Shown: in pieces, positions 2,593 through 14,798 of the stretch
Layout of the letters: every line of letters starts with the position of its first letter
How positions within the stretch are numbered: position 1 is the first letter of the stretch
DNA from: an uncultured Methanosarcinales archaeon
GTDB taxonomy: Archaea; Nanobdellota; Nanobdellia; Woesearchaeales; CAYVYK01
NCBI GenBank assembly: GCA_964455675.1
Contig: CAYVYK010000002.1
Coordinates: 133,791 to 197,790 of the forward strand
Length of the DNA: 64,000 nucleotides
Direction of reading: 5' to 3'
The notes under the pieces: generated by a model
Told to the model about the DNA's origin: nothing
What the model saw: only the letters and a program-made list of their open reading frames with translations
Database searches by the model: none
Program-made: the position numbers and the translations under genes

Positions 2593-4326
2593 GTGATAGG
2601 GGAAGAAGACCAGCTCCTGATGGTGGACTGTGAGGCATGTCCCTATGATATTCCCCAGATGAGTGCGATTGGCGTCAACCCAAAGTGCATCGATTGCCCA
2701 TTCATCAAGAAGAAAAGTTTTGACCGCCTCAGGCTGCGGAATAGATATTTTACCAAGGAATATTCTGAGGATCGCAGACTGCTGCATATCGAGCCGTTCT
2801 TTATCGACGTCCGTTTTGGTTTTGCGCATGGTAATTACAAGGTCGTTTCTGAATATACTGTGTCCACGGGCGCGCGCGTCCGCATCCTGCAAAAGCCTGC
2901 TGAGGTTGGGTACATCTATGAGATTAACATTCCCGAGATCAATGTCTCATTCAGTAAATTGTGGGATATGTTTAAGGAAGTTGAGGAATTTAAGGAGACT
3001 GGGGAGACGACAAACCAGATCATCAAGCGCTGGTACCTTGAGTACGGTATCCTTGAGCACCTTTTGTTTGATGATAAGGTCCTTGAGATCAACGTGAATC
3101 CTCCCGCGTACAAGACAGCCATTCGCATTGTGCATTCTGAGTTTGATGAATGCGTCTCAAATATTTATCCGACTCCTGAATTCACGAATTACATCAGTAC
3201 GAGATTGAAGATTTCGACGGGCCGTCCGCTGAACAAGGCCCAGCCCCAGCTTGATGGTGAGATTGTGATCGGCACGCACAAAGGTCGCGTCGCGGCGACG
3301 ATCGAGCCATTCAGCGTCTTTGGCACGGGCTTTTCCATTAGGAAGCATCGTGAACGCCCGTGGACTGTTCCCTTGTTCATGAAGAATGGCGCCGTGAATA
3401 ATTGGTTTGCTGGAATCATGTCGCTCGCGATCACGCAAGGTAGATCGTTCCTCTGCGCCGGTCCTCGCGGATCAGGAAAGACGGCGCTCCTTGGTTCCAT
3501 GCTCCTTGAGATTCTGCCAAAGTACAGAATTATCACGATTGAGGATACCCAGGAGCTTCCGATCGATTCATACAAGCAGATGGGTTATGATATCTTGCCG
3601 CTGAAGGTTCGCTCAGCGCTCCTTGAGCATGGTATGGAGATGCCTTTTGACATGGGCCTTCGTACGACGCTGCGCCTCGGTGATTCATGCCTCATCGTTG
3701 GTGAGGTACGCAGCAAGGAAGCTCGTGTCCTCTATGAGGCCATGCGCGTCGGCGCGATGAGTAACGTCGTCGCGGGTACGATCCACGGTGACTCTCCCTA
3801 TGGTGTATTTGACCGTGTCGTCAACGATCTTGGCGTCCCCGCAGGATCCTTTAAGGTCACAGACCTCATCATCATCGTGAACCAGATCAAGAGCCCTACA
3901 GCGCTGAAGCGCCTGAGGCGTGTGCTTTCAGTTACGGAAGTCTTGAAACGCTGGCAGAATCCGAATGAGCCGGAATTCCAGGACTTGCTTGTGTACGATC
4001 CGAATCGTGATGTGCTCGTGCCAACGGATGCGTTCCTGAACGGCCGCTCGGTGTTCGTCAATAATATTCTTGAGCGCGCATCTGGCTATGGCAGTTACCA
4101 AGCGGTGATCCAGGACATTATTCTGAGAGGCCGCTGCAAGGAAATGTTTGTGCAGAAAGCGAAGAGTCCTGAGCAGCTCGAGGCTCCCTATAATGCGCGG
4201 GCGAATGTTCTGTATGCCGTGCTGTCCGAGAAATACCAGCCGCTGAAGTCGCCTGAGAACACGGAGCGCTTCATGATGGCGTACAGCAAGATGTTGGATT
4301 TGCTGTTCTCGTACAGGCCTGGCTAA
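2593..4326 (+). CDS. Type II/IV secretion / type IV pilus assembly ATPase (VirB11/CpaF/ArlI family)
   Basis: Walker A GPRGSGKT, Asp box ITIEDTQEL, Walker B LIVGEVR, His box GTIHG. Confidence 0.92.
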   Translation: MIGEEDQLLMVDCEACPYDIPQMSAIGVNPKCIDCPFIKKKSFDRLRLRNRYFTKEYSEDRRLLHIEPFFIDVRFGFAHGNYKVVSEYTVSTGARVRILQKPAEVGYIYEINIPEINVSFSKLWDMFKEVEEFKETGETTNQIIKRWYLEYGILEHLLFDDKVLEINVNPPAYKTAIRIVHSEFDECVSNIYPTPEFTNYISTRLKISTGRPLNKAQPQLDGEIVIGTHKGRVAATIEPFSVFGTGFSIRKHRERPWTVPLFMKNGAVNNWFAGIMSLAITQGRSFLCAGPRGSGKTALLGSMLLEILPKYRIITIEDTQELPIDSYKQMGYDILPLKVRSALLEHGMEMPFDMGLRTTLRLGDSCLIVGEVRSKEARVLYEAMRVGAMSNVVAGTIHGDSPYGVFDRVVNDLGVPAGSFKVTDLIIIVNQIKSPTALKRLRRVLSVTEVLKRWQNPNEPEFQDLLVYDPNRDVLVPTDAFLNGRSVFVNNILERASGYGSYQAVIQDIILRGRCKEMFVQKAKSPEQLEAPYNARANVLYAVLSEKYQPLKSPENTERFMMAYSKMLDLLFSYRPG

Positions 4327-8024: not shown

Positions 8025-8313
8025 GCACAAAGGCATCATTCTTGCGTAGCAATGAAGATGCCGACCGATCCCCACCGACCAACGGGAGGTGGACCGTCCG
8101 ACAATGGTGTTATGACTCTATGCCGATGAGAGTTGATACCTATGTCATATATAGAGATATGTCACGCACAAAGGCATCATTCTTGCGTAGCAATGAAGAT
8201 GCCGACCGATCCCACCGACCAACGGGAGGTGGACCGTCCTACGATCTTAAGAATAAACAGAGAGCACGAGAGCATAGGACAATATATTTGACGGGAGGTG
8301 GACCGTCCTACGA
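8025..8313. repeat. Direct repeats of a ~75-bp structured element (8025-8099, 8166-8239; 3' fragment 8291-8313)
   Basis: Copies 1 and 2 differ by one C indel; ACGGGAGGTGGACCGTCC occurs three times; two hairpins per copy. Confidence 0.92.
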
Positions 8314-8412
8314 AGAGATAATGATTTCTTTGTCGGATCATGCGTCACAATAGGAGAGGTGAGAAGGTAATTAAACAACATCTTTATATCGTTCTTTTTC
8401 GTACCGTGCAGT

Positions 8413-9255
8413 ATGGAAGGGTTTATTCTGAAACGACCAATGTTTGGGAAGGATGTAGAGATCGTTTTGCAGGATGTCGAGGAATCACTTGGAATGGATA
8501 TCGGCATTCAAGCGTATGAGGAAGGCTTACGGCTCCAGTCCATCTTCAACCTCTATGATAAAAACAGCGAAATCTCGTTGCTCAATAGAAAGAGGGAGCT
8601 TACTGTCTCTCCTGAATTGGCATTCGTCTTGGTTAAAGCAAAGGAGCTTGCTGTCCTCTCAGGTCATGCATACGATGTGAGTCATGGCAGAAGATTTCTC
8701 GCAAGAAAACAGGGTGAGGCTGAACCCATTGTACATTGTACAAGCAATAATATCATCGTGAAGGGACGTAGGGTAGTCCTCGATCACGATGACGTAGTAG
8801 TTGACCTGGGGAGTATTGCCAAAGGCTACATCGTCGACCGTATAGCGGAGATTCTTATCGCCGAGGGAGTGGAAAATGGTCTCGTGAATGGTCGCGGCGA
8901 TATTCGCGTGTTTGGTACGAGCCAGCAGATTGATATCCAGCACCCTCGAAAAGACGCATGTATCTCCACCATAAATCTAGTAAACGCGGGTGTTGCAACA
9001 TCCGGTGATTATATGCAGTATCACGGTTCGCACAGCAACTCACATATTGTTGGACAAACCGACGCAGTATCAGTGACGGTTGTCGCCAAATCAGCCATGA
9101 TAGCGGACGCGATGGCGACAGTATTGTCGGTGATCACGCCGGCGAATCGTGAGGTGATCCTCGGGAAGTTCCCTGGAATTAGGGCGTTCATCGTTGACAC
9201 GAAATTGCGGTCCACATGTTTCAATTCGTTTGACAAGTTGGTGATGAGTCCATGA
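8413..9255 (+). CDS. apbE: FAD:protein FMN transferase (ApbE family), no obvious signal peptide
   Basis: SEISLLN, DLGSIAKGYIVD, VNGRGDI, IQHP, VATSGDY, SVTVVA..AMIADAMAT. Confidence 0.92.
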   Translation: MEGFILKRPMFGKDVEIVLQDVEESLGMDIGIQAYEEGLRLQSIFNLYDKNSEISLLNRKRELTVSPELAFVLVKAKELAVLSGHAYDVSHGRRFLARKQGEAEPIVHCTSNNIIVKGRRVVLDHDDVVVDLGSIAKGYIVDRIAEILIAEGVENGLVNGRGDIRVFGTSQQIDIQHPRKDACISTINLVNAGVATSGDYMQYHGSHSNSHIVGQTDAVSVTVVAKSAMIADAMATVLSVITPANREVILGKFPGIRAFIVDTKLRSTCFNSFDKLVMSP

Positions 9256-10550
9256 GAAAATTGCAGTACCTCGGATGGGGCGGTATCATCGTACTATGCC
9301 TGATTCCAGTCGCATTGTTGTTGAATGGACCTGCGTCAGGGTATGATCTGACCTATGGCAATCTCACACACATTTTTGGCCAGATCGCCGCCCTTGTCGG
9401 CTTGACGTTATTTGCTCTTGCGCTTCTCCTTGCGACCCGTTTCCGGGGGTTTGAAGACCTATTTGGCGGGCTTGACAAGGTGTACCGTGTCCATGCGATT
9501 ATCGGAGCGTTGTCACTCTGCATGCTTCTTCTCCATCCGATACTGCTCGTGATAAAATTCATTCCAAGTGACATATCTCGTGCAGCGATCTATCTACTGC
9601 CTGGAACGTACTGGTCCGTAAATTTTGGTTTTATTGCTCTCTTTGGATTGCTCCTTCTCATATTCATAACATTATTTACAGGCGTCAGGTACAATTACTG
9701 GAAGATCAGCCACACATTTCTTGGTATTGTATTCATCATCGCAACATTCCACGTGCTCATGGTAAGTGACGCCGCCCGTGATCCTGGTATATTCCCAGGG
9801 TATTTCATCTTCGCGAGCGCCATGGCGATTCTTGGTATATCATCATTTTTGGTTGTTCTATGGAACAAGCTTGCGCCAGGGTATCAGTACCAGATTGAGT
9901 CTATTAAACACGTCGGCGATCACATCGTTGATATCAAGCTTCGACCCCTTGGTAAACCGATGAGGTACCATGCTGGGCAATTTGCCATGCTGGAATTTCG
10001 AAATGCTGGATTGCCGACGGAATATCATCCTTTCTCGATTGCATCAGCAACAGATGCGAAGGATATACGCTGCGTCATTAAGGATCTTGGTGATTACACA
10101 GCAGGCCTAACAGTATTGCAGCCGGGCGATCGAGTAGCAGTCAAGGGCCCGTTTGGCCGCTTTCCTTCCTCGAATGGATCTTCACACCAGATATGGATCG
10201 CTGGAGGGATTGGCATCACTCCGTTCCTCGGAATGGCCGAAGATTTGCTTGGTGGCAAGAATCAGAGGGGGAGGATTGATCTCTATTATTGCGTTGCTTC
10301 GGCCGATCAGCTCATATCGCTTGAGCGACTGCGCCAGATCGAACGGCAGACTCCTGGATTTCACATCATACCATGGGTGAGCTCAAAGCAAGGTCGCCTC
10401 ACGTTAAACGCCATCAAATCGCTGGACATGCGTGATCTAGAAGTTTTTTTGTGCGGTCCAGAAAGTCTTAAGAATGCAATGCGTGATGCTTTCAGATCCG
10501 CGGGATTGTCAAGGTCTCACATTCACGCGGAGGAGTTTAGTTTCCGATGA
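9252..10550 (+). CDS. Ferric-reductase-like TM domain fused to FAD/NAD(P)-binding (FNR-type) oxidoreductase
   Basis: About 6 TM with putative heme His residues (GLDKVYRVH, LLLHP, WKISH, TFH); HPFSIAS, GPFGRF, IAGGIGITPF, FLCGP, HAEEFSFR. Confidence 0.93.
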   Translation: MRKLQYLGWGGIIVLCLIPVALLLNGPASGYDLTYGNLTHIFGQIAALVGLTLFALALLLATRFRGFEDLFGGLDKVYRVHAIIGALSLCMLLLHPILLVIKFIPSDISRAAIYLLPGTYWSVNFGFIALFGLLLLIFITLFTGVRYNYWKISHTFLGIVFIIATFHVLMVSDAARDPGIFPGYFIFASAMAILGISSFLVVLWNKLAPGYQYQIESIKHVGDHIVDIKLRPLGKPMRYHAGQFAMLEFRNAGLPTEYHPFSIASATDAKDIRCVIKDLGDYTAGLTVLQPGDRVAVKGPFGRFPSSNGSSHQIWIAGGIGITPFLGMAEDLLGGKNQRGRIDLYYCVASADQLISLERLRQIERQTPGFHIIPWVSSKQGRLTLNAIKSLDMRDLEVFLCGPESLKNAMRDAFRSAGLSRSHIHAEEFSFR

Positions 10551-11098
10551 TAAAAGCGATTACTGCTGCGGCGATGATTATTTCAGCATTCCTCGTCGGT
10601 AGTATTATCCTCATGGCCTTTGTGAAGTCACCATTCTTCGAGATTGGTTTCTTTCTCCTAACGCTTGCCTTGTTTCTGCTAACGATAGAGCGTATGCATT
10701 CTCGGTTATCGTCTCGTTCGGATGTCTTGCTGCTGATCATCGGTGGATTGGCATTCTGCGCTGCGCTCACGCTGTTTGCTCATTCCACGAATACGTACTG
10801 GAGAACAGAGACAATAACCATGGATGTCGCAAACGGAGATCTCGAGGGTAGATTGGATACGCTTCGAAGGGAGCTGGCAAGTGAACAGATGAAGACTTCC
10901 GAGCTGCTCCGCACAAGATCATTGTTGCCAAATCCCTCGCTGACTCCATCACCGACTCCTCCACCAATAATAATCCCAGATCCGGCAATCACGCCTTCGC
11001 CTACTCCGATTGAATGGGAAGAGGAGGATGAATCGGACGAGGATGAGAAGGAAGAGGAGAATGAATCGGAGGAAAATGAGGAGGAAGACGATGAGTAA
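10547..11098 (+). CDS. Membrane protein with Pro/Thr linker and extremely acidic tail
   Basis: 3 TM, short coiled coil, PSPTP repeats, tail almost all E/D; ATGA overlap with the reductase stop. Confidence 0.75.
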   Translation: MIKAITAAAMIISAFLVGSIILMAFVKSPFFEIGFFLLTLALFLLTIERMHSRLSSRSDVLLLIIGGLAFCAALTLFAHSTNTYWRTETITMDVANGDLEGRLDTLRRELASEQMKTSELLRTRSLLPNPSLTPSPTPPPIIIPDPAITPSPTPIEWEEEDESDEDEKEEENESEENEEEDDE

Positions 11099-11459
11099 AT
11101 TGAGAGTGTATATCGCGATTGCCTTGGTGCTCCTTATCGGGGGATTTGTCGCAGCAGCGTTCTCGCTCGAGAGAATGACGGCAAAAAAACAGGCTCTTGT
11201 CATATCAACAATCATGCAACAAGAGGCGGTGCGTCAGAAGGATGAACAGTTGGCAAACGCCATCAGCGAGCTTAGCCTTCTGATCGAAGAGGAGAAGCAA
11301 CGCCAGCAACAGATTATGGAGGAAGCTGTACCTTCGTCACAGCCGACTCCTTCACCAGTGGTTGTTCCCTCACCAACCATGACGCCTTCTCAAGCTCCCA
11401 CAAGGACGCCAACACCGATACCGAGAACCCCCCGACCGACGACGACTCGTGCGTCTTAA
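11091..11459 (+). CDS. Single-TM stalk protein ending in TTTRAS (candidate ApbE substrate)
   Basis: Start MSKLRV overlaps the previous stop and follows GAGGAGG; TM, coiled coil, P/T-rich linker, then PTTTRAS*. Confidence 0.75.
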   Translation: MSKLRVYIAIALVLLIGGFVAAAFSLERMTAKKQALVISTIMQQEAVRQKDEQLANAISELSLLIEEEKQRQQQIMEEAVPSSQPTPSPVVVPSPTMTPSQAPTRTPTPIPRTPRPTTTRAS

Positions 11460-11494: not shown

Positions 11495-12509
11495 ATGGAA
11501 TTGCCTCCGATCGGTAACTTAAAGCCTGAACATCCGTTTTTCCTCGCTCCGATGGAGGCAGTGAACTGCGCGTCATTTCGTCTGCTCTGCAGAATGCGTG
11601 GCGCGGCAGTTGTGTATACGCCGATGATTGACGCGGATCATTTCTGCCACATCCAGGATACCGAGAATACGAAAGCTGCGGTGCAGCGCCTCGTAAATCC
11701 GCAAACTGATGAGCAGCCGCTTGCAATCCAACTTGGCGGTTCAAAATCTGATTTTCTATGCAGGGCAGCAGAAGCTCTGCAAAAGCACGCGGCCATCATC
11801 GACCTGAATGCCGGGTGTCCGACGTCCGAGATCTTGGGACGCAAGGGCGGCGCGTACCTTGTGAAGCATCCTAATATGCTTGAGAAGCTCGCAACTGACC
11901 TGCGCGCGGCCGTGAAGATTCCTTTTACTGTGAAGATTCGCTCCGGATGGGACGAGGCATCGGTGAATGCGCTCGAGACAGCAAAGATGCTTGAGAGAAT
12001 TGGCGTGGATGCGATCGCGTTCCATCCGAGAACGAGGGCACAGAAGTACCGTGACCGAGCGGACTGGGTGCTTGCAAGGAAAGTGAAGTCTTCGCTGCAT
12101 ATTCCTGTTATNNNNNNNNNNTATTCTTTCAGGTGACGTAACAAATGTGTATATGGCGCACATGGCATTCGCCCACACAAAGTGTGATTATATCATGTGC
12201 GCTCGCGGCGCGAAGGCAAACCCTTCCCTTTTTTCTCATCTTGCGAGCTACTGGAAGAATCCTCTCCAGCCAAGGAAACCAGAAAAGCTCTATGGCAAGA
12301 CAACGGAAGAATCCCGCAAGGACTTTTTCGACTTTCTGGATTTGTACAGGAAGCGTGAAGAACGGTTTGAGTTCTCAGAGCTTCGCGACCATGCGTTGTG
12401 GACAGCGACAGAATGCGTTGGGAATAAGCGCATCACCCAGGAGATTCTTGCGTCAACGAGTGTTGAACAGCTATCCTCCATATTCAGTGCGATGAGATTC
12501 GCTCCGTGA
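11495..12509 (+). CDS. dus: tRNA-dihydrouridine synthase (Dus), interrupted by an assembly gap
   Basis: LAPME, IQLGG, IDLNAGCP, TVKIRSGW, FHPRT, MCARGA. Joining the gap flanks on their shared TAT gives in-frame IPVILSGDV. Confidence 0.9.
12112..12121. other. Assembly gap (10 N)
   Basis: Run of N in the sequence. Confidence 0.99.
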
Positions 12510-12552: not shown

Positions 12553-12927
12553 ATGGAGACTGTGGAGATTGTAGTATACATTATTGTTGCGCTCATCGCA
12601 GGTTCAATGATCCTGTATGTGTTGACCACAGTAAGAACTGATCGCAATCTAGCGGGCGATACTCAGTTCTCGTTTACTGAAGAGGAGTTTTACCCGAAGT
12701 TGATCACGCTCTGGAAGGAGTGCGGTCTTGGGACGCGGAACGCGACATACAGAGTGCATGTCAAGTCTGGATCAAACATCACAAAAGAGGAGGTCTTGCA
12801 GTACTTGCGCAAGTACAACCAGGAAGACCTGCTGAAAGAGGAAAATTTAAATATGTCGGATATGGATATACCTACCATTATACAGATTCGTTGCAAGGCA
12901 CACACGTTGACGCTATCAGGAGGATAG
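12553..12927 (+). CDS. Pilin-like protein (N-terminal hydrophobic helix)
   Basis: METVEIVVYIIVALIAGS plus a small Cys-containing domain; first of six tightly packed similar genes. Confidence 0.6.
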   Translation: METVEIVVYIIVALIAGSMILYVLTTVRTDRNLAGDTQFSFTEEEFYPKLITLWKECGLGTRNATYRVHVKSGSNITKEEVLQYLRKYNQEDLLKEENLNMSDMDIPTIIQIRCKAHTLTLSGG

Positions 12928-12931
12928 GAAC

Positions 12932-13315
12932 TTGGAATTACCGATACAGGTAGCAGTTGTTCTGCTGGTTACGGTTGCGGTAGCGGGAGCAGTTGTGTAT
13001 TTCTCTACAAGTGTCATCAGCGATGCGCAAAAGGAGATTCAGGAACCCTGGAAAGAGGAAAATCCCGAGCTCGTCATTGAGGTTGCGGACATCACGGATA
13101 ACGGCCTCAAGATTCTCGTGGAAGAGTGTTATCAGAGGAATGAACAGGAAGCGCTTTCCAAGGAATTGTGTTTTGTGGTGCATGGCCAGGCAAACCATGT
13201 AACTTTGGTATCAGGAATGATTAGCGGCATCAATGTCGAAGTTATTAATCCAGTCGGCAACACGCTTTACGTGTACTATGATCCTGCCGGCAGCAAGATT
13301 CAGATTACGAGTTAA
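12932..13315 (+). CDS. Pilin-like protein
   Basis: TTG start after GGAGG; MELPIQVAVVLLVTVAVAG. Confidence 0.65.
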   Translation: MELPIQVAVVLLVTVAVAGAVVYFSTSVISDAQKEIQEPWKEENPELVIEVADITDNGLKILVEECYQRNEQEALSKELCFVVHGQANHVTLVSGMISGINVEVINPVGNTLYVYYDPAGSKIQITS

Positions 13316-13331
13316 GAAAAGAGGTGATTGG

Positions 13332-13994
13332 ATGTACAAGTTGATCAGGCATCGGAGGGGTACTGACAAGCCCATCGAGATTTTCATCGCGCTGTTTATC
13401 ATTCTGGCTGTAGCGATGGTCATTTTGAAGATGTTTTCTGGACAGATCCAAGATAAGACTAAGGAGCTCCAGAAACTTGAGCAGAGGGAAAAATTCCAGC
13501 AGGCTCGAGGTGACGCCCAGCGTGAGTGTGAGGAAATCTGTACGATCTCGCTGCAGAACGACTGTGGCCTCCAGCAAAAGGCGCAGTATTGTCAGCATAA
13601 ACTCCAAACAGGGCTTGATATTGATCAGGACGGTGATTATTCCAGTTTCTCGCTTGACATGCTCGGTGGTATAGGTATTTGTGAAAGTGATATCTACTGC
13701 CCGTACGTTTCTGAGTGCAACTGCAAGGGTGACATGAGCATGAGCAATTGCGTTGATGTTCTCTGGCAGTTCTACAGGAGTGAAGATTATATGGGTTTGA
13801 AGTTCGACCAAGCCTGTGATCTGTTATACAAGCGTATCTATGGTAGTGAATGCAAGACACAGCTTGACGTCGGAGAGACCGCGTGGTGGACTGCGATTTA
13901 TAGAAAGATCGGCACCAAGAACAATGGAACCATGTCGTGCTTCCATCACTGCACGAACTCCTCGACCCTTCCTGACGATCAGTGTGTTAACTAA
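13332..13994 (+). CDS. Cys-rich class III signal peptide (pilin-like) protein
   Basis: GAGGTGA RBS; MYKLIRHRRG|TDKPIEIFIALFIILAVAMVIL with E in the hydrophobic helix. Confidence 0.75.
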   Translation: MYKLIRHRRGTDKPIEIFIALFIILAVAMVILKMFSGQIQDKTKELQKLEQREKFQQARGDAQRECEEICTISLQNDCGLQQKAQYCQHKLQTGLDIDQDGDYSSFSLDMLGGIGICESDIYCPYVSECNCKGDMSMSNCVDVLWQFYRSEDYMGLKFDQACDLLYKRIYGSECKTQLDVGETAWWTAIYRKIGTKNNGTMSCFHHCTNSSTLPDDQCVN

Positions 13995-13996
13995 GC

Positions 13997-14428
13997 ATGG
14001 AGCAGGCAGTCTGGGTGTACTTTGGTGTAGTCACGGTCATCCTTGCGTTCGGCATTGTCGGCAAGCTGATCATTGACTACCAGCATCAGCAGAAAGAGAG
14101 ACTTCTTGAGCCTGCGCTCCAGCGCCTTCAAGGTCAGTGCAATTTCGTCTGTGACTCGGCGATAGACACAAGGCTATCAGCTGACGTCGAACTTCCCTCA
14201 GGGGTAGTAATCACGACAGTCAATTCAGGGGTTGGAGGTAAGATTTGTGGTGATTATGGGGTTACTCGGCGTTGTCTTGTGTGCAACTGCCTTCTTGAGG
14301 ATTCCTTGGGAGGTGATTTTTCGCTGAACCTGAACACGACGACAGCGTTCCAGACATTCAGCACTCATGTGTATTCATGCTGGTTTACGAGGCTAGGGGA
14401 TGGCGCAAGGATTGAATGCCAAGGGTGA
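13997..14428 (+). CDS. Pilin-like Cys-rich protein
   Basis: MEQAVWVYFGVVTVILAFG; operonic spacing. Confidence 0.6.
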   Translation: MEQAVWVYFGVVTVILAFGIVGKLIIDYQHQQKERLLEPALQRLQGQCNFVCDSAIDTRLSADVELPSGVVITTVNSGVGGKICGDYGVTRRCLVCNCLLEDSLGGDFSLNLNTTTAFQTFSTHVYSCWFTRLGDGARIECQG

Positions 14429-14798
14429 AACGCCAACCGCCATCGTCATGTGGATTGGTAGTATTATGGCTGTTCTCATCATGGTGCTCTGGATCGGTAG
14501 GAATACCTATCCTTCGCACCAAGAGATCATGATGATCAACCAGGATCTGGAGGACCTTCAGTATCACATGAGTGATGCATGCTCAAGCTATACCATAGAC
14601 CTGGCATTTAATCCGAGGACTGAGCAGGGATACCTTATTCTGAACGGTAGTGTTGCTTGCATGAACACCTCGCACTTCCACCGCTGCAAATCCTTGATTT
14701 GTTCAGGAGGGTATCAGGCGTTTGATCTTGGAAATATGACCGAGCTTCGCATTACGCGTCCCCCAAATGGAACCGTGAGTTTTCGGGCGATCCCATGA
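14400..14798 (+). CDS. Class III signal peptide (pilin-like) protein
   Basis: NAKG|ETPTAIVMWIGSIMAVLIMVLW. Confidence 0.65.
   Translation: MAQGLNAKGETPTAIVMWIGSIMAVLIMVLWIGRNTYPSHQEIMMINQDLEDLQYHMSDACSSYTIDLAFNPRTEQGYLILNGSVACMNTSHFHRCKSLICSGGYQAFDLGNMTELRITRPPNGTVSFRAIP

Follow-up and report, generated by a model that had tools for sequence, protein, structure and literature searches.

A probable flavinylation operon of a Woesearchaeales archaeon with a putative domain-less flavin carrier ending in TRAS

Which protein does an ApbE-type flavin transferase modify when its operon offers no FMN-binding-domain partner? The question is raised by four genes at positions 8413-11459 of a 64,000-nucleotide stretch of DNA, referred to below as the window, from an uncultured archaeon placed by GTDB in the Woesearchaeales (GenBank assembly GCA_964455675.1; contig CAYVYK010000002.1, forward-strand positions 133,791 to 197,790). 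ApbE, a flavin adenine dinucleotide (FAD):protein flavin mononucleotide (FMN) transferase, has substrates that are currently recognized through folded domains (FMN_bind, DUF2271, NqrB/RnfD, Flavodoxin_4, and FMN_red), and DPANN archaea are seen as fermentative symbionts with few redox options. In the window, apbE is followed by the gene of a reductase resembling NADPH oxidases (NOX) and MsrQ and by the genes of two small membrane proteins, termed here P3 and P4, the second of which ends in Thr-Arg-Ala-Ser (TRAS). We consider it fairly probable, at about 65%, that these four genes encode a minimal chain of the NOX/MsrQ-like type for exporting electrons across the membrane, in which a domain-less tethered tail takes the place of the FMN-binding-domain protein; judging from sequence comparison and structure prediction, the P4 tail is most likely an undescribed minimal flavin attachment site. 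This reading is built on the gene content, the conservation of the terminal motif, its linkage to ApbE, the absence of the known substrate families searched for, and the conservation of catalytic and heme-binding residues.

The operon and its conserved C-terminal motif

The four open reading frames (ORFs) lie on the + strand and overlap by 4, 4, and 8 nucleotides. The first (8413..9255) encodes a leaderless ApbE homolog of 280 residues (PF02424; E-value 1.8e-41; 142.9 bits against a cut-off of 25.6), exactly one ApbE being found in the window genome by profile search. The second (9252..10550; 432 residues) encodes a ferric-reductase/NOX/MsrQ-like domain with six transmembrane (TM) helices and two hemes, fused to FAD- and NAD(P)-binding domains. 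P3 (10547..11098; 183 residues), a putative 3-TM adaptor, has three hydrophobic segments, a helical stalk region, a Pro/Thr stretch, and a 25-residue acidic C-terminal end, as read from its sequence and from a family alignment of 13 sequences. P4 (11091..11459), the candidate flavin carrier, comprises 122 residues from its ATG; AlphaFold2 (16-sequence alignment) modeled residues 2-79, which hold the TM helix and the stalk, as a single helix (predicted local distance difference test, pLDDT, >90) and residues 80-122 as a disordered Pro/Thr tail. The final codons (ACG ACG ACT CGT GCG TCT TAA) specify TTTRAS before the stop codon, within the longer ending PRPTTTRAS, and the last seven amino acids, P-T-T-T-R-A-S (11436..11456), are proposed to be what ApbE recognizes and flavinylates, Ser122 being the acceptor, a proposal supported by conservation and by the co-fold described below. 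Among the 16 aligned P4 family sequences the A-S end is invariant. The junction of the P3 stop and the P4 start reads GATGAGTAA, with GGAGGA immediately 5'. The initial annotation had described the region as four overlapping genes for ApbE, a reductase, an acidic-tail protein, and a TRAS-ending protein, and the ORFs, the Pfam matches, and the sequence itself bear this out. Neither P3 nor P4 matches a Pfam family at E ≤ 0.01, NCBIfam adds none, and neither gives a profile match to FMN_bind (PF04205), DUF2271 (PF10029), or NqrB/RnfD (PF03116).

Scans of genome and metagenome collections with reductase alignments yielded 80 + 80 = 160 loci. By a phmmer search with the window ApbE against their six-frame ORFs, an ApbE gene immediately precedes the reductase gene in the same orientation in 81 of these loci and is lacking in 62, the upstream DNA being too short to tell in 17. 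ApbE-linked loci were counted as assessable when at least 450 nucleotides followed the reductase gene (n = 70), and a tail ORF had to start no more than 900 nucleotides downstream and end in [S/T]-x-A-S. Such an ORF, ending in T-R-A-S or less often with Ser, Gly, Met, or His in place of Arg, follows the reductase in 65 of the 70 assessable loci, compared with two real cases among the 55 ApbE-less loci with room for it. The five exceptions comprise a contig with no sequence beyond the acidic-tail gene (L036), an ARAS ending (L044), a frame that runs on (L130), and two broken reductase genes (L160 and L165). In L130, a metagenome locus, the tail ORF (3793-4167) reads VVVHHQRRT and continues for 21 residues in place of RAS and the stop codon, which suggests an indel or a sequencing error at the motif. 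Three ApbE-less loci had in fact passed the filter, one by a spurious overlapping frame (L084) and two by near-identical real tails (L074 and L162); the genome of L074 carries ApbE on another contig (1.8 kb).

Altogether 68 distinct tails were counted, of which the spurious L084, the sole one with Asp at position -3, is one, leaving 67 real tails. Position -4 is Thr in 66 and Ser in 2, position -3 is Arg in 56, Ser in 4, Gly in 4, Met in 2, His in 1, and Asp in 1, and positions -2 and -1 are Ala and Ser in all 68; since tails were chosen by their [ST]xAS end, the filter itself dictates positions -1, -2, and -4, and free variation is confined to -3 and the residues upstream. Fifty-five of the 67 tails end in TRAS and four in the canonical TGAS or SGAS, and upstream of the motif Arg, Val, Pro, and His are enriched. 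A search with the first 40 residues of a tail protein of the simplest architecture (type A, below) returned 4 proteins at E ≤ 0.001, too few for a non-circular test of the C-terminus. As a background rate, 13 of 8185 ORFs of at least 60 residues in the window genome end in [ST]xAS, and P4 is the only TRAS-ending one in a gene-like context; the terminal motif is conserved far beyond chance. The loci span records labeled Woesearchaeota, Pacearchaeota, Nanoarchaeota, and Micrarchaeia. Among 60 genomes of the same order there is one close full-length reductase homolog (45% identity), preceded by ApbE and followed by a 107-residue TM/Thr-rich protein that ends in FRARAS.

Co-folding of ApbE (45-row alignment) with the last 40 residues of P4 (45 rows, 44 in the job), FAD, and Mg was performed in three runs with 3 controls. 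The score was 0.94 in all three runs, compared with 0.02 for the best control. Among solved complexes 116 of 157 attain the mark for this score, as do 2 of 215 mismatched pairs; these counts serve only as a rough guide given the job's own alignments and the small molecules included. The runs share at least 58% of their contacts, with a partner pLDDT of at least 49, and the confident interface joins residues 34-40 of the fragment (PTTTRAS) to ApbE residues 161-164, 171-176, 178, 194-202, 220, and 222, including the invariant RGD and ATSGDY. The model is evidence for, not proof of, binding of the tail end to the active-site motifs of ApbE. The interface has seven residues, the same as the minimal tag length given in a review (PMC12052999).

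In alignment with the solved ApbEs 1VRM and 6NXI, the window enzyme matches across DLGSIAKGY, ATSGDY, the SHI histidine, and the A-D..AT metal site, and D131-G138, R161-D163, A195-Y200, H211, S220, A231, and D232 are invariant among 45 ApbEs of its clade; its catalytic and metal/FAD motifs are intact. The N-terminal signal peptide or lipobox typical of ApbE is absent, as the ORF begins 10 residues ahead of the first conserved strand and leaves no space for it. In 57 of 65 clade ApbE ORFs with a complete 5' end, at most 50 residues precede the IFNFYD motif, and the longer ORFs have an internal Met at the usual place. ApbE is present in 16 of 61 same-order genomes; because seven of the nine high-scoring ones begin with a lipoprotein-type hydrophobic leader ending in Cys, the leaderless state is not a general trait of these archaea. 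Cytosolic ApbEs are known (PMC12052999).

The initial annotation had recognized no FMN-binding-domain protein in the operon, and this holds for the whole genome: FMN_bind, DUF2271, and NqrB/RnfD gave no match at E ≤ 1 in the window genome (1.72 Mb in 25 contigs, 99.02% complete, 0.44% contaminated), while control genomes were positive, and no canonical substrate from these families lies elsewhere that could account for ApbE. The window genome likewise has no cytochrome b5, and it encodes an archaeal CTP-dependent riboflavin kinase. FMN_bind stays below the cut-off in four of five other tail-bearing genomes. One tail-bearing genome (L195; G068:C4:12817-16056) has a canonical FMN_bind protein elsewhere (65 bits), and tail and domain substrates can coexist in one genome.

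Operon architectures and the position after the reductase

The tail proteins occur in three architectures. In architecture A, ApbE and the reductase are followed by one small protein with an N-terminal anchor (consensus M..KLK..VGIAL..F.LV..NIIAFG), a T/P/Q/N/S-rich linker of 50-110 residues, and TRAS at the stop codon. Architecture B, that of the window, has a P3-family 3-TM acidic-end protein and then a TM-stalk-tail protein ending in VTRAS or TTRAS. Architecture C, a split form seen in two same-order genomes, comprises ferredoxin, an FNR-like protein (214-219 residues), ApbE, a TM-only reductase (294-298 residues), and a TM-coiled-coil protein whose tail ends in KPRTRAS or RRRRTRAS. Since the TRAS ending is common to A, B, and C, it has been kept through the rearrangement of everything else. 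The P3 N-terminus matches type-A tail proteins with an hhalign probability of 96.3% (E 1.6e-9; 30 columns), a kind of score that TM profiles can inflate. The first TM helix of P3 would on this comparison be the anchor helix common to the single-gene tail proteins and to the cytochrome b5 partners described next, and because of this match the four-gene form looks like the three-gene form split, that is, like a single-gene tail protein divided into an anchor/adaptor (P3) and a tail carrier (P4). The split operons of two genomes, G021 (L008 665-1252) and G003 (L005 2420-3115), are preceded by a secreted Asp/His-rich protein with repeats like EDDHEDDHEDDH and a hydrophobic C-terminal end, possibly a metal-binding surface protein tied to the electron conduit.

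In ApbE-less relatives the same position may hold a different carrier. An N-terminally hydrophobic ORF after the reductase matched cytochrome b5 (PF00173) above the cut-off in 10 of 10 loci tested, these loci having been picked for possessing such an ORF, which many other ApbE-less loci do not have. The anchor helix of the b5 partners matches the tail-protein anchor (hhalign 93.7%; E 1.9e-7; 27 columns), and several b5 partners also end in acidic runs. These sister systems, found in the candidate phyla radiation (CPR), other bacteria, and some archaea, share gene position, anchor type, and sometimes the acidic end with the tail systems, but their carrier is a heme domain and their loci contain no ApbE, which was also not found in any of the three genomes with b5-partner loci that were searched. 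The gene slot after the reductase would by this comparison be one for a tethered one-cofactor electron carrier, with a bare tail standing in for the carrier domain wherever ApbE occurs. In our view, no argument for a redox cofactor on the tail is stronger than the finding that the slot otherwise holds an anchored cytochrome b5.

In one same-order genome (G020), a reductase paralog is found next to a 604-residue protein whose N-terminus looks like a cleavable signal peptide and whose C-terminal part is a cytochrome b5. The region G020:C4:12000-31000 (L032) holds two ApbE-less reductase paralogs together with genes for a secreted DUF5667/cytochrome b5 protein, a membrane protein of the CcdA/DsbD type, thioredoxin-like proteins, a copper-type P-ATPase, and a cysteine desulfurase, and the locus is another use of the conduit, in envelope thiol or metal redox. 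The two full-length reductase paralogs of this genome were considered as members of the present system and rejected, as they are not ApbE-linked and sit with cytochrome b5, CcdA-like, and metal-handling genes; they serve only as a contrast.

The window reductase matches Ferric_reduct (PF01794; 1.1e-11), FAD_binding_8 (PF08022; 4.4e-8), and NAD_binding_1 (PF00175; 4.6e-10). His81, His95, His154, and His167 are conserved in 69 of 69 ApbE-linked and 51 of 51 ApbE-less homologs (120 in total); spaced 13-14 residues apart on two TM helices, they follow the NOX/FRD pattern, and the HPF[ST] FAD motif is present. Fifteen residues are at least 90% conserved in the ApbE-linked reductases only (Y35, T52, V100, K102, F103, A112, I180, F181, G183, Y184, F199, A264, G327, W375, and K407). 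Under a six-TM topology with the N-terminus inside, nine of these (Y35, V100, K102, F103, A112, I180, F181, G183, and Y184) fall in loops outside, near the outer heme, where they possibly form a flavin docking site. The reductase itself was considered as the ApbE substrate and set aside: it has no clade-specific Ser/Thr in a soluble loop, the only such residue being T52, within a TM helix.

Proposed mechanism and competing readings

The initial annotation had proposed that the terminal TRAS is a variant flavinylation motif, making P4 a swinging flavin arm, and the computational checks that it put forward, namely conservation of the ending in apbE-ferric reductase neighborhoods, a co-fold of ApbE with the C-terminal peptide, and a search for a canonical substrate elsewhere in the genome, all came out in favor of that interpretation. 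In the chain proposed here, NAD(P)H would reduce the FAD of the cytoplasmic dehydrogenase domain, and electrons would cross the membrane by two b hemes, ligated by His81/His154 and His95/His167, to reach FMN attached by the leaderless ApbE through a phosphoester to the hydroxyl of Ser122, the last residue of P4. P-T-T-T-R-A-S-COOH would be a natural non-canonical flavin tag, with T-R-A-S standing for [S/T]-G-A-[S/T] and no upstream Asp. With its TM helix, its stalk some 8 nm long, and its floppy 43-residue Pro/Thr tail, P4 could let the flavin at its tip swing between the outer heme and distant acceptors, while P3 would supply the anchor helix that simpler loci have in the tail protein itself and would probably hold P4 through its own stalk, the two proteins being presumably joined stalk to stalk. 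Read in this way, the system would belong to the ApbE-linked electron transfer of the NOX/MsrQ-like kind but would use a substrate of a new class.

Known systems resemble this chain in part. NOX enzymes reduce O2 directly at the outer heme, whereas in the present system a tethered carrier gene follows the reductase. The Listeria system is set apart by an extracytosolic FmnB that depends on exported FAD, by FMN-binding domains in PplA, and by electrons that arrive via quinones and not through a NOX-like protein. The likeness to this flavin-based extracellular electron transfer (PMC9973259) lies in an ApbE-type enzyme that makes a surface-tethered flavoprotein handing electrons outside. The NOX/FRD superfamily, including bacterial NOX-like proteins and MsrQ, has the six TM helices, the His spacing, and the FAD and NAD(P) domains of the window reductase. 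MsrQ-like flavinylation clusters (Meheust et al., 2021; PMC8238504), with a proposed path from NAD(P)H to an extracytosolic flavin, have PF01794 next to apbE and often PF00175, as does the window. Those clusters typically include an FMN-binding-domain protein, were filtered for components with signal peptides, and are mainly actinobacterial, whereas the window operon and genome have no FMN_bind, the ApbE is leaderless, and the host belongs to DPANN. The engineered flavin-tag (Tong et al., as summarized in the review PMC12052999) resembles the P4 tail in that a seven-residue terminal peptide suffices without a flavin fold, and it is said there to work best at a protein terminus; it differs in being artificial and in its sequence, D-x-x-[S/T]-G-A-[S/T], whereas the natural tail has no Asp, Arg for Gly, and a Ser end at the extreme C-terminus. 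So far, flavinylation of a short terminal tag is known only from engineering. In FMN_red proteins (Huang et al., 2024; PMC11334425), the in vitro flavinylation site lies on a disordered C-terminal extension, as proposed for P4, but this extension, which has canonical-like motifs, folds back onto a flavin-binding domain, whereas P4 has no such domain. A full-text literature search, in which subscription journals were not covered, found no paper linking ApbE to DPANN archaea or describing this system.

Several points weigh against the proposed chain. Compared with D-x-x-[S/T]-G-A-[S/T], the window tail has the Ala before a terminal Ser acceptor and the Ser/Thr three residues ahead of it, but Arg at the Gly position and Pro at the Asp position; 55 of the 67 tails share this TRAS end, and no tail Asp is conserved. 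A Gly-to-Ala change in the published motif already halves flavinylation (PMC12052999). Position -4 is not strictly Ser/Thr, as the ARAS ending of L044, a locus outside the count of 68, indicates. The residue at -3 shows no clear covariation with ApbE alignment columns (8 non-Arg cases among 45), and the loci are related, so that their counts are not independent events. The leaderless ApbE and an outside tail would lie on opposite sides of the membrane, unless the tail is modified before export. ALAD (PF00490) was not found in the 99%-complete window genome, although the reductase needs two hemes, and heme would have to be scavenged or produced by an unrecognized route. Flavinylation, with the flavin adduct itself, the assembly of P3, P4, and the reductase, the direction of electron flow, and the acceptor are what we infer. 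Two further long ORFs with a canonical motif, discussed below, are possible extra substrates, yet they give no account of the family-wide tail pattern.

The side of the membrane on which the tail lies separates the proposed chain from a reading in which it is cytoplasmic and the FMN acts inside, for example as a tethered link from the FAD/NAD(P) domain, or from the FNR-like protein and ferredoxin of the split form, to the inner heme or a soluble partner. We regard that reading as unlikely. It would agree with a clade ApbE that has no export signal, whereas other same-order ApbEs have one, and with split operons in which a soluble FNR-like protein and ferredoxin need a link to membrane hemes; FNR-fold reductases that reduce cytochrome b5 on the cytoplasmic face are, moreover, a textbook eukaryotic pairing. 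Against this, NOX-type enzymes need no mediator from FAD to the inner heme, and the flank N-terminal to the TM helix is more positive than the C-terminal one in 52 of 63 tails, which by the positive-inside rule predicts the tail to be outside. An N-x-T sequon occurs in 15 of 16 stalk proteins, although not in the window copy, the linkers are rich in Thr, Pro, Gln, and Asn like archaeal surface linkers, the clade-specific reductase residues lie on the outer face, and the reductase-adjacent cytochrome b5 protein of the same order has its cleavable-looking signal peptide. We favor an outside over an inside tail at roughly 4:1. With the transferase in the cytoplasm and the tail outside, the question arises how a cofactor-bearing terminus crosses the archaeal membrane. 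A possible, if tentative, answer is that the leaderless ApbE loads FMN onto the C-terminal serine in the cytoplasm and the tail is threaded across last; this order might account for a site that is always at the extreme C-terminus, the last part to cross.

A second departure from the proposed chain would accept that the TRAS end binds ApbE or another factor but as a docking, sorting, processing, or stability signal without flavinylation, ApbE serving the reductase otherwise, for instance in flavin trafficking or in the FAD hydrolysis known from some members of its family. The departure of the motif from the canonical one fits this, and the co-fold gives binding geometry only; it is nevertheless improbable in our judgment, as four tails are exactly [S/T]GAS and A-S ends all 68 (within the filter described above), which is more in keeping with a transferase site than with a sorting signal, as the catalytic His and the metal/FAD motifs of ApbE are all kept, and as the tail tracks the presence or absence of ApbE, with a heme carrier replacing it where ApbE is missing. 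Less probable still is that ApbE modifies the reductase or an unrecognized protein and that the TRAS proteins are unrelated accessory subunits. Missing Pfam families do not exclude novel substrate folds, and when 22,748 six-frame stretches of the genome were scanned for D..[ST]GA[ST], 7 matches turned up, of which two lie in long ORFs: a 681-residue orphan (G000:C4:108997-111048; L215) that begins MNAFLDDGTGAT, the exact canonical motif at the N-terminus, and a 3057-residue secreted giant (DVPSGAS). Neither ORF matches a Pfam family, a proteome of this size should by our own estimate contain about two such matches by chance, and the orphan has no homolog in 60 same-order genomes, including four others with the same ApbE clade. 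The orphan match is probably due to chance, with some room for a second ApbE target, and the linkage of tail and ApbE would be left unexplained. Against the reductase as target stands the lack of clade-specific Ser/Thr in its soluble loops. That the tail ORFs are functionless low-complexity sequence, produced by chance or annotation, is barely credible: the proteins are of low complexity and match no family, but the 67 distinct real tails share invariant ends, conserved N-terminal anchors, and translational coupling of the ATGA type in several archaeal lineages and three architectures, and the ending has a low background (13 of 8185 ORFs). The conservation already contradicts this reading.

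If the proposed chain and the export of the loaded tail are correct, P4 would be a 'fishing rod', whose tethered flavin receives electrons from NAD(P)H by way of the NOX-like two-heme protein and hands them on to the host cell, to minerals, or to oxygen. Genome-reduced DPANN archaea would thereby possess a minimal device for extracellular electron transfer and a route for discarding such electrons. In evolution, the heme domain of an anchored cytochrome b5 and a bare flavin would be interchangeable as carriers of a NOX-like conduit. P4 would be the founding natural domain-less flavin tag, with the recognition code T-R-A-S-COOH; such a tail-only substrate would explain orphan leaderless ApbE genes and would widen the recognition rules of ApbE, which would be useful for flavin-tagging technology.

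Promoter region and neighboring genes

A TATA-like box, TTTATATC, is read at 8383..8390 (+ strand), about 23-30 nucleotides before the apbE ATG; this putative promoter element suggests a leaderless archaeal transcript of the operon, and it is plausible that one such transcript covers all four genes. A T-run lies 3' of the P4 stop codon. The 590-nucleotide spacer 5' of apbE contains direct repeats at 8025-8314, comprising a 48-nucleotide unit in two exact copies (8025-8072 and 8166-8213) and a 35-nucleotide unit in three copies (8071, 8211, and 8280) with the common core GGGAGGTGGACCGTCC. Scans of the repeat-bearing spacer and the operon for tRNAs and Rfam families gave no match, and the repeats might have a regulatory role or be left over from a small mobile element. 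Directly downstream of the operon lies the dihydrouridine synthase gene dus (11495-12136; PF01207, an FMN enzyme), whose ORF is broken by a run of X at about 12100-12140, corresponding to an assembly gap (N run) in the scaffold. Further on, 12553-14798 holds a row of small proteins of about 124-253 residues, several of them with a short N-terminus followed by a hydrophobic helix, which in this respect resemble archaeal pilin-like or surface proteins.

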